Shown here: one piece after another, positions 12,144 through 19,369 of the stretch
How the letters are laid out: every line of letters starts with the position of its first letter
Numbering within the stretch: the first letter of the stretch is position 1
Source of the DNA: a virus
Taxonomy: Duplodnaviria; Heunggongvirae; Uroviricota; Caudoviricetes
IMG/VR virus record: IMGVR_UViG_2728369593_000011
Length of the DNA: 21,675 nucleotides
Strand: one strand, 5' to 3'
The notes under the pieces: generated by a model
The model's input: the letters and a program-made list of their open reading frames with translations, nothing else
Database searches by the model: none
Told to the model about the DNA's origin: nothing
Program-made: the position numbers and the translations under genes

Positions 12144-12160
12144 TTTCAAAAGTGTAAATC

Positions 12161-12197
12161 AGAACCACTCGTATAGCGGGTGGTTCTCTGTTTTATT
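12161..12197 (+). terminator. Rho-independent terminator (plus strand)
   Basis: agaaccac (12161-12168) / 11-nt loop / gtggttct (12180-12187) followed by ctgttttatt. Confidence 0.5.
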
Positions 12198-12259
12198 CGT
12201 GTTGCGACTAAAACTAACTAAAATCACGCATATGAAAGATAATGGGAAAATTATCGCTA

Positions 12260-12697: not shown

Positions 12698-13192
12698 TGT
12701 TGCCCCCACAAACAGACTTCACGCTCAATCTCACGGCGAGTCATCAGCCCTTTCCATTGCTTACCGCCAGCGTATGTCCAGCGCCGTAGCTGATCACATG
12801 CGCCTTTGATATCGCCCTGGTTTATTTTGCGAAGTAAGCGTCGATGTTCTGAAATTGCCAGCGCCCACGTTGTAAACGAACGAGTAAAGAGCGCCGCGCG
12901 TTGTTTCCGGTATATCGACTTTGATGTACGGGTTTATTTGTCTGGCGACCGTGGCAAGGTCTTTATTCAGGAGGGCTTTGCATTCTGCTTCGGTATACGT
13001 TTTACCGGGCATGATGTCTTTTCCGGTGTGTCCGTGACATACAGTCCATACGCCAACGATATCTTCGTATGGTATGTAGCTGACACCTTCCAGGCCATCG
13101 TCACCACTCGGACCAGTGATGAGCACAGACGCTATGGCAACAGCCCCACCACCAATAGCAGCAGCAACAGCCTTGCGTAATGACGGAGACAT
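12694..13192 (-). pseudogene. R: SAR endolysin (phage 21 R-type lysozyme) with 1-bp insertion near 12835
   Basis: N-terminus [61 protein letters not shown]... matches the P21 SAR endolysin pattern. After ...[12 protein letters not shown] the track frame ends ([13 protein letters not shown]-stop at 12794), while the adjacent frame reads [47 protein letters not shown]-stop (12694). Confidence 0.85.
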
Positions 13193-13400
13193 TATTCACC
13201 TCTCGCAGCCTTACGCTTATCTTCTTTAATCTTGAAATAAAGATTTGTCAGATACGTCAGCAGGCCAAACAGCAGACTCCCCAGCACACCTATTCGCCAC
13301 CCACTGGGACGGAGAGACTTTGTCCAGCAGCTGCAGTAACCAGTACTCCCGTCCCCACCGCTGACGTGGTGTATGACACACCTGTTGTGATTTTTTCCAT
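13192..13400 (-). pseudogene. S: Pinholin (phage 21 S-type class II holin) split over three frames (two indels)
   Basis: From ATG 13400: frame 0 [14 protein letters not shown]..., frame +1 [18 protein letters not shown], frame +2 [33 protein letters not shown]-stop. Together these follow S21 ([42 protein letters not shown]...KIREDRRKAARGE). TAATG overlap with the endolysin start; GGAGA RBS. Confidence 0.75.
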
Positions 13401-13440
13401 CTGATGTATGTCTCCGTCACCGCCGACAGAAAATGAAAGT

Positions 13441-13481
13441 AAAGAAAAACAAAAAAGCCGCCAGTGTCACCCACTGACGGC
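13441..13481 (-). terminator. Rho-independent terminator-like hairpin upstream of the holin (minus strand)
   Basis: Minus-strand GCCGUCAGU-GGGUGAC-ACUGGCGGC (one mismatch in stem) followed by UUUUUUGUUUUUCUUU. Confidence 0.45.
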
Positions 13482-13656
13482 CAACGCCGGGAGCCGTGAT
13501 TATGGCATTCAGGCTCTGCTAAAAATGCCAGATAACATTCCGGCCAACCCCTGATTCAGGTTATAAATGACACAATATCTTGACAACATCCGTCACTGTC
13601 TGTCAGAAAATGTACTGCCAAGTATAAGTATCATGTGAAGTACATCTACCCGTTTT

Positions 13657-13692
13657 AGCCAGCGTCCTTCAGAGTGGGCGCTGGCTTTTTTT
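13657..13692 (+). terminator. Rho-independent terminator oriented on the plus strand, abutting the nanS-p stop
   Basis: agccagcg (13657-13664) / 14-nt loop / cgctggct (13679-13686) followed by T-run to 13692; on the minus strand it lacks a U-tract. Confidence 0.45.
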
Positions 13693-13693
13693 A

Positions 13694-15548
13694 TTATGAT
13701 GCCGGTGCATTTATCTCCAGCACCAGACTTTCTATCTCAACGCCATACGCTGCATTTTTTGTAACATCCGTCAGCGTCAGCGCATTCAGTCCCAGTGTCA
13801 GACTGTCTTTTATAACCTGGAATGCCGGGCCAGCCACTCCATTCAGTTTCGGAGTAACCGTGGCACTGCCGGCGGTGAACACCAGCTCCGAGCGTCTGCC
13901 AGTCGTTACCGTAATCGCCGAACTCCCCCAGCTTCGTGTTTCCGGCTTTCCTGTCGATGCATCAGATTCACTCTGCCGTCAGTGGTCTGAGTGAAGTACG
14001 ACATCAGGAACGGATTACCGGTACCCGTCATCGCCACACCATCAGGAACGGGAGCATCCGTATACAGATAAATCCCCAGCCCGAACTGATTGTTGGTCAG
14101 TGCGCCTGACAGGCGGAACTTACAGGTCAGTCTGCCGCCCTGTGTCAGCAGGGTAATTGCGTCATCCACCGGATGCGTCAGGGACCAGGTTTTATTGCTC
14201 TGCTTGGTGATCTTAAATACACCATCTGACAACTGAATTCCGCCATCCTTAATGCTCCAGCCCTGCGCAGCAGCATCTCCGGCTGTCGGCAACAGGGAGA
14301 TTGTGCGTACGGATGCATCTTCAGACGGCCCCGATGGCGTGTCGCCGCCGGGCGAGGGTTTGATTTCCGGTGCCTTACCACTAATGAAGGCTAAGGTGCG
14401 ACCGGCTACGTTCAGAATAGCAGTTGCCATACGATCGGGAATAATGCCACGACGCGCCCATGAGCTGAAATGCGTCGGGCGATTTGATGATACCCAGTTT
14501 TTGTTCGTTCGGGATGCCGAACCGTAATAACCAGACCCGGCAATATCAGGATCTTCTGACGGGTTGTTTGTCGGTGTATTAACTCCGCTACCATCGGTCA
14601 TAAAGGGAACAAAATAAATCTGCTGGGATTCTTTACCTTTATATGCACCATATACCACTTCATATTGCGTACCGTGTTCTTGTTTCCACGCGTATGTCGT
14701 GTCGCCACAAAGTCCAGGGGACTGATGCCGGACTTCCACCGTCGACACTGCGCCGCCAGCCCGGCAAGGTCAGCACGGAACTGCTGTACCATTGCAAGAA
14801 ATGCTGCTGGCTGCTGGGCGTAACTGGCATTCGTCATATCGAATTCCCCCTGCATCCAGCATATCGCCAGCAAAACGTTTTTCGGGTTTTTCTGCAATGC
14901 TGCCTTCGTGCGGAAAAGCAGATCCTGATATAACGGCTTACCCACTCCCCAGCGAGCCGAATCCTGACTGGCCCCCGTGGACTCGCTGAATGTCCCCTCC
15001 GTGCCCTGGGTGAATGCCGAACCACCACGACAGCATGGTACCAGCAGGATCCCCGCGTTATTCGGGATATACGGGAGCAGTTTTTTGGCAATATGTAAAC
15101 CCTGGCCGACACAGCCGTACTGCCCTTTGCTCAGGTCAGCCCTCGGATGATTCAGCGTACTCATATCCTGCACATCATGCAGACAGTGGTCAGCCGGAAT
15201 AATATCGTTATATCTGCAGGCAGCCCCGCCCGGCGTCACTGTACTGCGGCGCGCCAGCTGTTTAATGCGCGGATCCGGAGCATCGTATGAATCCGGCAGC
15301 GGAAGCCCTTCACCGTAAGCCATGGCATTGGATTGCCCGGCCAGTACGATGACGTAGTACCAATCCGGCTCAGATGAAGGGCCGACCTGTGGCTCTCCTT
15401 CAATAGCCACCGCCTGCATCAGTGTGTACGGCGTAATGGCAACCGGTCCGCCGTATGGCTGCCAGCCCTCTTTCAGTTTGTGTGTCAGCTTTTCCGCAAG
15501 GTCTGACGGCGACGCCGCCCTGACAACATCGTAATGTTTAATCGACAT
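13694..15548 (-). pseudogene. nanS: Prophage-type sialate O-acetylesterase (NanS-p-like), fragmented by at least two frameshifts
   Basis: Track ORF 14598..15548 has a prophage NanS-p-like N-terminus (MSIKHYDVVRAASPSDLAEKLTHKLKEGWQPYGGPVAI...) and an esterase motif VIVLAGQSNAMAYGEG. The protein continues in another frame (13906..14748, ...TTYAWKQEHGTQYEVVYGAYKGKE...) with a junction near 14700, then in a third frame (13694..13882). GGGAGAAA RBS before ATG 15548. Confidence 0.7.
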
Positions 15549-15634
15549 CGAATTTCTCCCGTGTAGAGGAACAGAGTTAAAAAGCCGGAAGCGGAATCAA
15601 ATCACAGGATGACCATCTGCCAGTGGCAGGTCAT

Positions 15635-15663
15635 AAAAAAAAAGGCTAGCGCAATGCGCAGCC
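15635..15663 (-). terminator. Rho-independent terminator (minus strand) between the cargo block and nanS-p
   Basis: Minus-strand GGCUGCGC-AUU-GCGC(U)AGCC (8-bp stem with 1-nt bulge) followed by UUUUUUUUU (plus-strand A-run 15635-15643). Confidence 0.5.
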
Positions 15664-16092
15664 AGAACTCACAAGGAAAATGATAAAAGGAATAACACTA
15701 GTGATGTACGCATGGCGCCTCCCGCTAAGTTCTGCAATGATCAAACAGAACTCGCTACGTGCCCTTAAAACTCGATCATTTAGCCCCTCCAAGGAGGATT
15801 CACCATGCGGTTGATTTTTTAATAAACAGTAAACAAAAAAGTCAAGAATTATTCATTCTGTTCTTTCATCATCGGCCACAGCAATACCACAATGCCGCAG
15901 ACCAGAGCGCCATCAGTCAGTACCAACATTATCCTGCTGGTGAAATCCATCATCACCATCACTAAAAGCAGGATCACAACAGCAAGCAGACACAGTTTAT
16001 AAAACAATGTTCAGAAAACGCATTCAGCATGCCTAAGGTTCTATTCCTACGAATAGCCAACTTGCAACTTAAAATATTATTTATGCAGCCAA

Positions 16093-16335
16093 TTAAATTC
16101 TGGTCCTTACAATATCAACCTGAAGATTCTTATCTTGTGCTGATTGATAAATGACAAACCTTTTACTACCTGCATTGAAAGAAGTAGACAAAACCAGACA
16201 ATTATCATAACGAGCAAGAACATAATACCAACCATCATTATAATTAATCATTTCATATTCTTTCTTAAACTGCGGTTTGTAATATCCTGTCAGAAATGAA
16301 AAAAGCCAAAAATATGCCACAAAAGCAATCATCAC
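16093..16335 (-). CDS. Hypothetical protein (80 aa), probable C-terminal continuation of the upstream membrane protein across a homopolymer frameshift
   Basis: ORF (V)MMIAFVAYFWLFSFLTGYYKPQFKKEYEMINYNDGWYYVLARYDNCLVLSTSFNAGSKRFVIYQSAQDKNLQVDIVRTRI begins 5 nt after the previous ORF's stop, one frame offset. Confidence 0.4.
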   Translation of the reverse strand: MMIAFVAYFWLFSFLTGYYKPQFKKEYEMINYNDGWYYVLARYDNCLVLSTSFNAGSKRFVIYQSAQDKNLQVDIVRTRI

Positions 16336-16339
16336 AATC

Positions 16340-16852
16340 TCAAAAAAAATGTTTTTTTATAAATGGCTTATCATAGAAGCATGATACCGATAAAAATCGC
16401 CCATAAGATCTTATCGAAATTGTAACCGCCAGCGCAATCGCTGCTGACAGTAGCAAAAGAGGTACCTGAATCTTCTGTCTCAATATAGAAAACTCAATAA
16501 TTGCCGGCACAAACAATAATTCCACAGCAAAATAAAGGCGAAATACATTTAGCTCTTGCATAGAATGTTTTCTTTTCACTGCGAAAAAGAATACAACACC
16601 AATACCCCAACCGATAAGAAATATAGCAATGACGATAACTGCAAAAAATAAACTTCTGGCAACATCATCAACACCTGCACCTACAATCCACCATGGGAAG
16701 CCGTAGTAAAAAGAAGTACCCCATCCATAGAAATAAGCACTCCCCCATCCAAGGCATCCCATGTAGGCAATAAAAAGTGAAGAACTCCTGAGCAGCGCAC
16801 CATCCTTCATAACCACCCCAATACAAGATGATAACATTGGCTTACAACTCAT
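16340..16852 (-). CDS. Hypothetical polytopic membrane protein (AT-rich cargo gene downstream of PR'/tR')
   Basis: 170-aa ORF rich in aromatic and hydrophobic segments (...GWGSAYFYGWGTSFYYGFPWWIVGAG..., ...FFAVIVIAIFLIGWGIGVVFFFAV...). Likely start at ATG 16810 (MKDGALL) preceded by GGGGTGG. Ends at a TGA inside an A7-CA-T8 tract. Confidence 0.5.
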   Translation of the reverse strand: MSCKPMLSSCIGVVMKDGALLRSSSLFIAYMGCLGWGSAYFYGWGTSFYYGFPWWIVGAGVDDVARSLFFAVIVIAIFLIGWGIGVVFFFAVKRKHSMQELNVFRLYFAVELLFVPAIIEFSILRQKIQVPLLLLSAAIALAVTISIRSYGRFLSVSCFYDKPFIKKHFF

Positions 16853-16949
16853 AACAAAAGCAATTCAATGCCGTCAAGAGGTTACAGGCTAAAAAAACTC
16901 TATTACATAGCAGCCAGCATGTTTACCGTACAAGTACAACTCAGGGCAT

Positions 16950-16977
16950 AAAAAAAACCCACTCGGCAGCGGGTTTA
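16950..16977 (-). terminator. tR'-like rho-independent terminator downstream of Q
   Basis: Minus-strand AAACCCGCU-GCCG-AGUGGGUUU (9-bp stem with one G-U pair) running into a U8 tract; about 50 nt downstream of the predicted PR' start. Confidence 0.6.
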
Positions 16978-17009
16978 TACATTTTTTACAACATACCAAA
17001 TTTGCATGA

Positions 17010-17038
17010 AGTATATGGCTTTTAATCCAGTTTTGCAA
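17010..17038 (-). promoter_or_regulatory. PR'-like late promoter (sigma70 -35 TTGCAA / 17-bp spacer / -10 TATACT) overlapping the 3' end of Q
   Basis: On minus strand: TTGCAA (plus 17033-17038), 17-nt spacer, TATACT (plus 17010-17015). Position matches lambdoid late promoters. Confidence 0.4.
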
Positions 17039-17711
17039 TATTTTGCTGTAAAAATGCTGCCTTTTGTTTTGAACGTGTTCTCGTCACAAGCAATAAAGCA
17101 TCACTATCAAGCTGTAGAAAAATGTGCTTCATTGCAACCCAGCGTTCAGTAAATGTCTCGGACCAGTTTTTTGTTGTCACTCCCACCAATGATGCCAGTG
17201 TCTGGTATTCATAGGCCTCACGCCCTGCAAGTTCGCTCTTCACATCCTGTGCAGCCAGCCAGATTAACGTCTTCAGGCGATCCAGTGTCTTACCTGCAAT
17301 TTTTCTGTTACTTAACAAATCTTTAAACTCGCTCCATGCCCATTGCGTTATGGTGACCTGATGCCCCCATCGAACGCTTTCGCTGTAACACCAAAGCAAC
17401 CATGCTTTCTGATGTTCATCGAGAGACAAAACCGCGCGGCGCCATGAAGAGGTTGAGAATTCAACCGGGCTGACCAAAGCAATGGATGAACCTTTTGCGT
17501 ACGACTGCTTACCGGAAGTCGGCGTATTATCCAGCGTAATCATCTTGCCAGTTACCACATCCAGAATGCGCGGCTTCTTTCGTTTGTATGTACCAGTATC
17601 AAATTGTGCATGCTCCTGCCAGGCTTCGAGCTGGCCTTTCGTTGCTCCGTTCAAGTCAGCAGTAGCTGCCATAAGTTGCTCACGAACATACTGTAAATAT
17701 TGGGTATTCAT
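17022..17711 (-). CDS. Late-gene antitermination protein Q (not lambda-Q or Q21 type)
   Basis: 229 aa from ATG 17711 (MNTQYLQYVREQLMAATADLNGATKGQLEAWQ...LDEHQKAWLLWCYSESVRWGHQVTITQWAWSEF...) with AAAGGA RBS. Sits between the rusA/ylcG nin genes and the lysis cassette, with promoter and terminator immediately downstream. Family call is from context and recalled annotations. Confidence 0.7.
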   Translation of the reverse strand: MNTQYLQYVREQLMAATADLNGATKGQLEAWQEHAQFDTGTYKRKKPRILDVVTGKMITLDNTPTSGKQSYAKGSSIALVSPVEFSTSSWRRAVLSLDEHQKAWLLWCYSESVRWGHQVTITQWAWSEFKDLLSNRKIAGKTLDRLKTLIWLAAQDVKSELAGREAYEYQTLASLVGVTTKNWSETFTERWVAMKHIFLQLDSDALLLVTRTRSKQKAAFLQQNIAKLD

Positions 17712-18184: not shown

Positions 18185-19147
18185 ATGAAAAAAAGTGTCA
18201 TCGCTGGCGTCTTTATTGCTCTGTCATTTACCACGTGTTCAGCTATCGCGAACAGCCTTGCATTATCATTAGCAAATGATGATGCAGGGAAGTTTCAACC
18301 AATACTTAATGATATTTATGGCAATAAACATGAAAACAGAGATGATTACTCACAAGGCTTATTTCTGGGATATAGCCACGATATCTCAGACTCGAGCCAA
18401 TTATCTCTCCATATTGCGCAAGATATTTACTCTCCATCAGGCAGTAATAAAAGACACAACACAGCTGTAACTGGAGACAGAGCTTTTAGTGCATACACTC
18501 ACACTGGTATTGAATGGAACTCCCTTGCGAATGACTGGATTCGCTATCGATTAGGTACTGACATAGGTGTTGTTGGCCCCGACGCAGGCGGTCAGAAAGT
18601 ACAAAATAAAGCTCATGAGATTATTGGGGCAGAAAAATATCATGCATGGGATGATCAAATAGAGAATCGCTACGGTTATACTGTAAAAGGGATGCTATCC
18701 ATGACACCAAGTATGGATATTTTAGGTGCTAATGTTGGATTATACCCTGAAGTTTCTGCTGTTACTGGAAACTTATTTCAATATGTAGCATATGGCGCAA
18801 CCATTGCCATTGGTAATGATAAAACCTTCAATTCGGATAATGGCTTTGGTCTGCTGGCTCCCCGTGGTTTAATGCATATGTCCGATACAAGCGGATTCAA
18901 ATACAAGATTTTTGCAGGTATGGAAAGACGAGATGTCAATCGCAACTATACTCTCGAAGGAAAAACAATACAGACGAAACAAACAACAGTATCGCTAAAC
19001 AAAACTGTTGATGAATATCAAGTTGGCGCAACAATTGGGTATGCACCTGTAGCCTTCACACTAGCATTTAATAAAGTAACATCAGAATTCAAGACAGGGG
19101 ATGACTATTCATTTATAAATGGAGCAATCACCTCTTTTTTTAACTGA
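18185..19147 (+). CDS. lpxR: Outer-membrane lipid A 3'-O-deacylase LpxR-like protein
   Basis: 320-aa ORF with signal peptide MKKSVIAGVFIALSFTTCSAIA. Counting from the predicted mature N-terminus (NSLALSLANDD...), N9, D10, S34 and H122 fall on the LpxR active-site positions as I recall them (Asn9, Asp10, Thr34, His122). AGGAAG RBS; AT-rich codon usage. Confidence 0.65.
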   Translation: MKKSVIAGVFIALSFTTCSAIANSLALSLANDDAGKFQPILNDIYGNKHENRDDYSQGLFLGYSHDISDSSQLSLHIAQDIYSPSGSNKRHNTAVTGDRAFSAYTHTGIEWNSLANDWIRYRLGTDIGVVGPDAGGQKVQNKAHEIIGAEKYHAWDDQIENRYGYTVKGMLSMTPSMDILGANVGLYPEVSAVTGNLFQYVAYGATIAIGNDKTFNSDNGFGLLAPRGLMHMSDTSGFKYKIFAGMERRDVNRNYTLEGKTIQTKQTTVSLNKTVDEYQVGATIGYAPVAFTLAFNKVTSEFKTGDDYSFINGAITSFFN

Positions 19148-19226: not shown

Positions 19227-19369
19227 ATAAAAGATTAAAAGTTGCAATAAAATAATAAAATGACTCAGTTACGAAAACCAATAAACTGTGGCCAGTAGTG
19301 AGTCGCTCATCATCGGGCTTTTTGGCGAATGAAATTTAGCTACGCTTTCGAGTCTCATCGTCTTCCCCT

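Follow-up and report, generated by a model that had tools for sequence, protein, structure and literature searches.

Lambda-like phages carry accessory genes, or morons, of which bor and lom of phage lambda and stxAB of the Shiga toxin (Stx) phages are described examples. These are low-GC inserts among conserved late genes, with their own terminator and a probable promoter of their own, and are dispensable for phage growth. The closest described system to the locus considered here is that of phage 434 (OL657226; Feiss et al. 2022, PMC9119081), in whose record a Q82-like antiterminator gene is followed by a terminator, a gene for a 'putative membrane protein' (744 nt, CPT_434_68), the TciB gene (DUF3927, CPT_434_69), a small doubtful open reading frame (ORF) with an internal terminator, a SASA-family esterase gene (nanS-p), and the holin, endolysin and spanin genes. 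The corresponding block was analysed in a 21,675-bp stretch of viral DNA (the window), which is the whole of contig AKYH01000002.1 of draft assembly GCA_001605745.1; a literature search found no paper citing AKYH01. The block sits between Q/tR' and nanS-p on the minus strand, as do all genes of this part, and coordinates are those of the window.

A megablast search with positions 15500-17100 as query (1601 bases) matched phage 434, as well as many E. coli chromosomes and prophages, with 99.8% nucleotide identity over 1.6 kb, and at least 80% of the query was held by 678 complete E. coli genomes. The order Q, terminator, membrane-protein gene, TciB gene, terminator and SASA esterase gene is identical to that of phage 434. 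Prophage PP2 of enteropathogenic E. coli (EPEC) E2348/69 and one prophage of EDL933 have the order LpxR, YlcG, Q, membrane protein and DUF3927, as in the window. Alignment with phage 434 over the 1.6 kb revealed three differing places: one A more in the A-run at 16342-16349 of the plus strand (coding strand T8, against T7 in phage 434), two extra bases in the downstream terminator, and one substitution. We conclude, with a probability of about 0.85, that the span is a known accessory (moron) cassette of lambda-like prophages, heading the cargo of their late operon in the stxAB slot, that its membrane-protein gene is split by one extra T and is not a maintained switch, and that the membrane protein is a factor of the lysogen's envelope or host interaction, this last part being held only tentatively. 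The cassette is already known, its genes being annotated in phage 434, EPEC and enterohaemorrhagic E. coli (EHEC) and its small RNA (sRNA) having been published.

The position of the block fits a moron. The part common to Stx phages and the 1601-base query is only the 5' end of nanS-p (in most, the first 62 bases), and the block therefore occupies the slot used for stx in those phages. The initial annotation, made from the sequence alone, had placed the block at this site, and it does follow Q/PR'/tR' as the first cargo, with nanS-p and the lysis genes downstream of it. The low GC content described there was likewise found, at 0.31-0.41 across 15800-17000, compared with 0.57 at 15001-15400 and 0.49 at 17201-17600. 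In phage 434B, a clear-plaque phage, the whole Q-to-lysis region has been swapped for DLP12 DNA and the phage is still propagated, so the cassette is dispensable for phage growth. The block shows a deviant low GC content and a terminator, is absent from Stx phages and is replaced wholesale in 434B; its promoter is consensus-like, with a similar element at the equivalent site in non-phage copies. Compared with bor, lom and stxAB, the cargo here is a membrane protein and an sRNA, with no toxin or outer-membrane lipoprotein.

As sequenced, the membrane-protein gene appears as two ORFs of 170 and 80 aa, one frame apart, whose junction on the coding strand reads ATAAAAAAACATTTTTTTTGAG, that is, A7-CA-T8. 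Both the offset and the prediction that a 1-nt change at the homopolymer would fuse the ORFs had been put forward in the initial annotation, and both were confirmed: removal of one T gives a single ORF identical to CPT_434_68, which is annotated as 247 aa. All homologues, distant ones included, start at the methionine of MKDGALL, preceded by GGGGTGG, and the real product is therefore 238 aa. The starts that give 247 and 252 aa were rejected because the MKDGALL start is conserved across homologues, and codons 1-14 of the 170-aa ORF probably remain untranslated. The frame changes after residue 156, and the truncated product loses the last hydrophobic helix and the conserved C-terminal domain. 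All parts of the full-length, single-ORF architecture (N-terminal aromatic/Gly motif, about five helices and a C-terminal beta domain in about 238 aa) are present in the window but split over two frames, making this copy, as sequenced, a disrupted member of its family.

The length of the tract in related strains was surveyed with probes of 96, 95 and 94 bases, carrying A8, A7 and A6, respectively, against 5,426 complete E. coli genomes. The locus was found in 681 of these genomes, at 1,211 places. Exact matches among the 681 genomes numbered 262 for T7, two for T6 and none for T8. In 45 of 45 records taken evenly down the ranking, the match was equally long in record and query, i.e. of the in-frame length, and the non-identical records among them had about one mismatch to the T7 probe (98.9% identity). 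The comparison of tract lengths suggested in the initial annotation thus gave a near-universal in-frame length, together with rare off-length variants. Both truncated products are present in public assemblies according to an exact-protein look-up. Thirty contigs with the exact 165-aa product were considered as so many T8 alleles, and this count was rejected; the four contig-end copies inspected (L007-L010) are T7. In these E. coli drafts the contig ends within a few bases past the T7 run, and the resulting 'partial' 165-aa proteins mimic the T8 truncation in exact look-ups.

The extra T is one of many small differences in this contig. Relative to phage 434, the window has 11 insertion events and four deletions at 12.8-19.3 kb; nine of the insertions are of a single base, several lie outside homopolymers, two are in a 500-bp stretch without any substitution, and two are located at the place of the phage 434 holin gene. 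Insertion sites other than the tract include 12835, 13295, 13346, 13890, 13955 and 15645. When three relatives were compared, indels unique to the window were about as many as its unique substitutions over 15.0-19.4 kb, and one 3-kb stretch differs from one relative (L008) by one mismatch and three gaps. The major capsid gene is split into 209 and 143 aa, the endolysin ORF has 132 aa instead of 165 aa, and nanS-p is split into 316, 280 and 62 aa. Insertion-biased single-base indels in otherwise identical DNA look more like an uncorrected assembly than gradual prophage decay. Because of this excess across the contig, a homopolymer over-call in an error-rich draft is rated slightly the likelier origin of the extra T, at somewhat better than even odds, and a sporadic slippage mutation is judged a little short of an even chance. 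Whichever the origin, the intact gene is the norm. The indel excess affects any gene-level reading of the window; the stretches concerned include 12800-16400 and others, such as 3240-4293, 12794-13192, 13190-13400 and 13694-15548.

The encoded protein contains 21% F+W+Y and has four strong hydrophobic segments in addition to an aromatic N-terminal helix, in agreement with its first description as a polytopic, aromatic-rich membrane protein. That description also called it unrecognised and without a homologue, which proved wrong. Besides the annotated gene of phage 434, identical RefSeq proteins of 238 aa are named 'hypothetical protein' or 'STM1630 family protein', PHROG 1521 was matched with an E value of 1.9e-154, and PF27470 (TfpB) is recorded in precomputed annotation on all 108 homologues of one search as well as on the contig's own 165-aa product. 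When the products, intact and split, were scanned against local copies of Pfam and NCBIfam, the large protein had no match; the local Pfam copy apparently lacked PF27470, and the family name was taken from the precomputed annotation. The family is small, with 72 clusters at 50% identity among 1.84 billion representatives in a profile search, and its named members are mainly from Enterobacteriaceae, Pasteurellaceae, Neisseriaceae and Moraxellaceae. Conserved features are the N-terminal AYxYGWG...YYG(F/Y)PWW...ARSL motif, four strongly hydrophobic helices after the aromatic first helix, and a beta-rich C-terminal domain of about 55 aa. The family alignment showed no conservation of acidic or histidine residues that would hint at catalysis, and the charge distribution suggests an N-in, C-out topology. 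A first AlphaFold model from 21 sequences was too poor for use (pLDDT 57), and a second from 59 sequences reached pLDDT 73 and pTM 0.66. A profile search against the sequences of the PDB found no solved relative.

Two named relatives have been described outside lambda-like prophages. TfpB of Moraxella bovis and M. lacunata, encoded by an ORF of the type IV pilin inversion region and the namesake of PF27470, is homologous by tblastn (E 2e-18 for M. bovis and 1e-14 for M. lacunata) and shares 26-29% identity, the helices, and both the AYxYGWG...PWW motif at the N-terminus and the beta region at the C-terminus; it differs in that its neighbours are pilin genes and a recombinase gene of the IS110-like (piv-type) kind. 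The pilus ATPase called TfpB in Acinetobacter baylyi was discarded as a relative, being a different protein that is unrelated despite its name. The tfpB ORF has about 195 aa in M. lacunata and M. equi (L029, L031 and L032) and 261 aa in M. bovis (L028); the shorter forms are without the C-terminal domain, so that truncated family members also exist outside E. coli. The second relative is Salmonella STM1630, for which the Salmonella cluster representative is 46% identical over its full length, with equal architecture and start. STM1630 differs in being chromosomal, adjoining an SseJ-like effector gene and lying outside a prophage late operon.

The genomic surroundings of the family were then compared. 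In lambdoid prophages the membrane-protein gene directly follows antiterminators of three unrelated families (PF06323, PF03589 and PF06530). A 59%-identical paralogue in E. coli (L034-L036, gene 4001-4714) lies about 870 bp from LT (eltAB-type) genes, divergently oriented, and about 3 kb from an STb gene, with transposase genes flanking; this enterotoxin-linked paralogue is listed in 1,285 blocks of the collection. On the Citrobacter rodentium chromosome (L037, 2863-4717) a TfpB-like gene and lpxR, the latter split in two, are adjacent and divergent, without an intervening Q gene. In the phages it looks as if ylcG-Q-PR'-tR' had been inserted into such an lpxR/TfpB-like pair; alternatively, a prophage was lost from the chromosome and its morons alone stayed behind. 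In Salmonella the gene adjoins that of a GDSL-lipase effector with a Sif-type N-terminus (SseJ-like), which is the position of STM1630. In Moraxella it stands beside pilin genes and an IS110-like recombinase gene, as the classical tfpB, and in Pasteurellaceae it is a stand-alone gene. STM1630 is listed in the literature among the genes co-regulated with Salmonella pathogenicity island 2 (SPI-2), and its promoter has been reported as inactivated in ST313. It was reportedly picked from RNA-seq data for a macrophage study. An earlier motility screen of STM1630 is of uncertain meaning.

The third element of the cassette is pasD, the gene of an Hfq-dependent sRNA. According to a survey of prophage sRNAs from 2026, pasD directly precedes a sialate esterase gene, in the vicinity of Q and LpxR, and is structurally related to STnc100; phage 2B8, which the survey gives as an example, is among the near-identical matches to the block. 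In Table S6 of the RIL-seq study, PasD2 is given as NC_011601.1:741157-741328 (172 nt), with a Northern probe and seed. This interval of E2348/69 lies between the DUF3927 gene and nanS-p and aligns base for base over 172 nt with 15635-15808 (-) of the window, two insertions in the terminator excepted. The PasD probe matches 15653-15676 with one mismatch, the one that its authors note for PasD2. A relaxed Rfam scan gave a full-length STnc100 match at 15681-15838 (-) with 36.8 bits and E 1.3e-5, under the gathering score of 47; at the gathering threshold nothing was matched in the window, and no tRNA was found. PasD1 and PasD2 of E2348/69 (EcOnc13 in EHEC, kin to STnc100, RF02076) and the copy in the window are alike in seed, in the site directly upstream of the sialate esterase gene and in linkage to Q and LpxR. 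The difference lies in the terminator, where one additional U in the 3' arm, a bulge in the stem and a U9 tract in place of U8 weaken the predicted hairpin of the window (-13.2 versus -16.8 kcal/mol).

The initial annotation had assigned this hairpin and U-run, which a simple terminator scan overlooked, to the membrane-protein block as its own terminator; the structure is present, and belongs to pasD instead of to the membrane-protein ORFs as such. The two ORFs named there were likewise real, and an intact DUF3927/TciB-like gene and pasD within the same span had been missed. In the phage 434 record pasD is unannotated and a 62-aa ORF is called over it (48 aa here), which is probably no gene, since it overlaps the sRNA and terminator. 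In the literature the Hfq-bound PasD RNA of about 172 nt is reported from E2348/69 only. The RIL-seq study gives a base mean of about 11,000 for PasD2 in RNA-seq of uninduced EPEC, so at least the pasD part of the block is active in the uninduced prophage. The promoter of pasD may be a TTGACT element located some 30 nt before the PasD 5' end. At 18339-18366 (+), inside lpxR (18185-19147), the window has an unaltered copy of the site published as the PasD2 target in E2348C_0684 (lpxR), and this site contains CUCACAAGG, a perfect 9-nt complement of the PasD seed region. A regulatory pair may be formed by PasD and lpxR, the moron for a lipid A deacylase in that prophage.

The features of the block are collected in Table 1. 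Promoter-like matches in the scan were no commoner than in shuffled sequence, and the candidate PR' is for that reason assigned by position. A terminator is annotated in phage 434 at the place equivalent to 16947-16976. An STnc240-like Rfam match at 16946-17015 was weak and not significant (28 bits, E 0.29). In an alignment of upstream regions, likeness to the enterotoxin-linked E. coli copy starts at the TTGACG element, and the C. rodentium copy has a TTGATT-N18-TATGGA element at the equivalent site. The membrane-protein gene probably has its own promoter.

Table 1 Features of the cassette between Q and nanS-p (window coordinates)
Feature	Position	Strand	Remarks
Promoter-like site TTGCAA-17-TATACT	17010..17038	-	Overlaps the 3' end of Q; candidate PR' of a Q82-type antiterminator; consensus scan
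tR'-like intrinsic terminator	16947..16976	-	9-bp stem and U8, between Q and the first cargo gene; scan and fold
Candidate moron sigma-70 promoter(s)	16828..16877	-	Just 5' of the conserved start: TTGACG-N18-TATGAG (16848-16877) and TTGTTA-N18-TGTTATCAT (16828-16857); the scan gives one match
TfpB/STM1630-family gene, 5' part	16340..16810	-	Residues 1-156, then premature TGA; conserved start ATG 16808-16810 (MKDGALL); mechanical ORF 16340..16852 (170 aa); PF27470:TfpB recorded on the contig's own product
Lesion, A8 on the plus strand (T8 coding)	16342..16349		Run of seven in almost every relative, phage 434 included; shifts the frame by +1 after codon 156 of 238
TfpB/STM1630-family gene, 3' part, other frame	16093..16335	-	80-aa ORF; last transmembrane helix and conserved C-terminal beta-rich domain (about 55 aa); PHROG 3985 built from this fragment
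DUF3927/TciB-like small membrane protein gene	15849..16007	-	52 aa, intact; identical to phage 434 CPT_434_69 and RefSeq WP_000499454.1
pasD sRNA gene (PasD2 variant; EHEC homologue EcOnc13)	15635..15808	-	Equals E2348/69 PasD2 except for two extra terminator bases; seed UGUGAG intact
pasD intrinsic terminator	15635..15663	-	GCGCUAGCC+U9 in the window, GCGCAGCC+U8 in relatives; terminator annotated in phage 434

Taken together, the cassette comprises, in order along the minus strand, PR'/tR', the TfpB/STM1630-family gene for an inner-membrane protein of about five helices with a small C-terminal beta domain, the DUF3927/TciB-like gene, and pasD with its own promoter-like element and terminator. 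In the lysogen it would be transcribed from its own promoters, with transcription stopping at the pasD terminator, and after induction Q-modified polymerase would read through the cassette into nanS-p and the lysis genes. The membrane protein, perhaps with the DUF3927 protein, would modify envelope or host-interaction properties of the lysogen, as in lysogenic conversion. That it acts on the lysogen envelope or host interaction, and not in phage reproduction or defence, is a tentative reading with rather less than an even chance. It is drawn from the contexts of the family, namely the LT/STb loci, sseJ, lpxR and the Moraxella pilin switch. It also fits the neighbouring cargo, which comprises LpxR, NanS-p and, in phage 434, an Iss/Bor-like lipoprotein, and the inclusion of the adjacent lpxR mRNA in the PasD2 interaction set.

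Several observations weigh against these conclusions. A true T8 run was verified in at least three other assemblies (L003, L005 and L006) on two different Q backgrounds, so the allele exists in nature and the copy in the window need not be an error. One T8 copy sits in an allele that is 3% divergent, and the recurrence of T8 on different backgrounds marks the run as a mutational, or sequencing, hot spot. The promoter ascribed to the moron is a mere consensus-like match. As for function, no experiment gives any member of the TfpB/STM1630 family a role, and in the accessible text of the macrophage study (PMC6785131) only deletion of STM2475, not of STM1630, cut replication in macrophages. The searches proposed in the initial annotation brought a family on the profile side (PF27470 and PHROG 1521), and on the structural side the fold searches with the second AlphaFold model gave no significant neighbour.

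Other explanations of the lesion were considered alongside an error or sporadic mutation. Phase variation, one of three options listed in the initial annotation, would make this a contingency gene in which slipped-strand changes of the T-run toggle the membrane protein in the lysogen population. It could account for +1 (T8) and -1 (T6) variants in independent assemblies, for the separate PHROGs families of N- and C-terminal fragments, and for the two adjacent homopolymers. The survey speaks strongly the other way, with off-length alleles in two of 681 complete genomes and no T8 among them. The wild-type run is just 7 long and encodes Phe-Phe in a Phe/Lys-rich, AT-rich gene, in whose shuffled versions runs of at least seven A/T arise in 46%; other alleles of the family lack a run at this position and have in-frame T7-T8 runs elsewhere. 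Neither frequent length polymorphism in close relatives nor a conserved tract, the marks of a contingency locus, was found, and a switch is considered very improbable. The other two options, a pseudogene lesion or a sequencing error, agree with the extra T relative to the T7 of phage 434. Recoding, by which the split gene would still be expressed in some product, appears more improbable still. In CAU UUU UUU UGA GAG, tRNA-Phe could re-pair perfectly in the +1 frame at the stop codon, UUU_UGA, in a prfB-like slip, and transcriptional slippage on U8 could restore the frame as well. In E. coli, eight-base runs lead to slippage of transcription at a low level. Relatives do not share the frameshifted arrangement but have the gene in frame, and no stimulatory Shine-Dalgarno-like element lies upstream of the slip site.

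With regard to function, the membrane protein might instead serve the prophage against other phages, by superinfection exclusion or abortive infection, two roles proposed in the initial annotation beside envelope modification. In favour, it is a prophage-borne inner-membrane protein in a moron, and exclusion proteins are often small membrane proteins whose fold is unknown. The name of the neighbouring TciB-like gene alludes to colicin resistance, but was given by annotation transfer only. None of the three products matched PADLOC-DB at E <= 0.1. Homologues occur in non-phage contexts (beside LT/STb genes, lpxR in C. rodentium, the SseJ-like gene in Salmonella and the Moraxella pilin switch, and stand-alone in Pasteurellaceae), and STM1630 is listed as co-regulated with SPI-2 and was chosen as macrophage-relevant from RNA-seq, all of which makes an anti-phage role unlikely. 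A bolder proposal, with a lower chance again, takes the TfpB/STM1630 family as a recurrent envelope factor that travels with secreted-virulence cargo and whose members may share one role, such as remodelling of the envelope or the release or presentation of exported factors; in addition, +1 slippage at UUU_UGA could make T8 and T6 alleles leaky, so that the knock-down would be graded and not all-or-none. It is prompted by the 'toxin slot' after three unrelated Q families and by the neighbours, LT/STb, the SseJ-like gene, lpxR and the Moraxella pilin switch.

A role in the lysogen envelope or host interaction is thus the preferred, though tentative, reading. As a finding on the window, the locus carries little weight, being a frameshifted copy of annotated genes, probably through sequencing error. 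Experiments might be worthwhile only on the TfpB/STM1630 family, with its links to virulence; it occurs in hundreds of pathogenic E. coli prophages, beside enterotoxin, effector and lipid A-modifying genes, and is without a recognisable fold. The cassette also couples the membrane protein to PasD, whose published interaction set includes the neighbouring lpxR mRNA, and through this coupling the Q-proximal region looks like a co-regulated lysogenic-conversion module and not like a set of unrelated inserts.

The remaining gene of the cassette encodes the small DUF3927/TciB-like protein, which matched PF13064 over its whole length (E 3.4e-14; 53 bits against a cut-off of 25) and PHROG 1470 (TciB-like; E 2.5e-17). 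Its TciB name is an annotation transfer, and a literature search on TciB/TciA returned unrelated papers only. Near lpxR, a 1-nt deletion at 19132 changes the last lpxR codons, and the spacer downstream carries an 8-bp tandem duplication relative to phage 434 at 19246-19253 (AATAAAAT AATAAAAT). Of the other sRNAs of this group, PasA is absent, the window being without 155 bp that phage 434 holds at that place, PasA probe site included. The pasC gene lies at 13615-13692 (+), between the end of nanS-p and the holin region and antisense to the late operon; it is 100% identical to PasC of E2348/69, and the probe matches exactly at 13640-13664. A second low-GC block (0.38-0.43) is found at 10200-12200, between the lysis genes and the terminase small subunit gene, and is probably another moron; its 113-aa ORF at 10911-11252 (-) carries a TonB_C domain in precomputed annotation.

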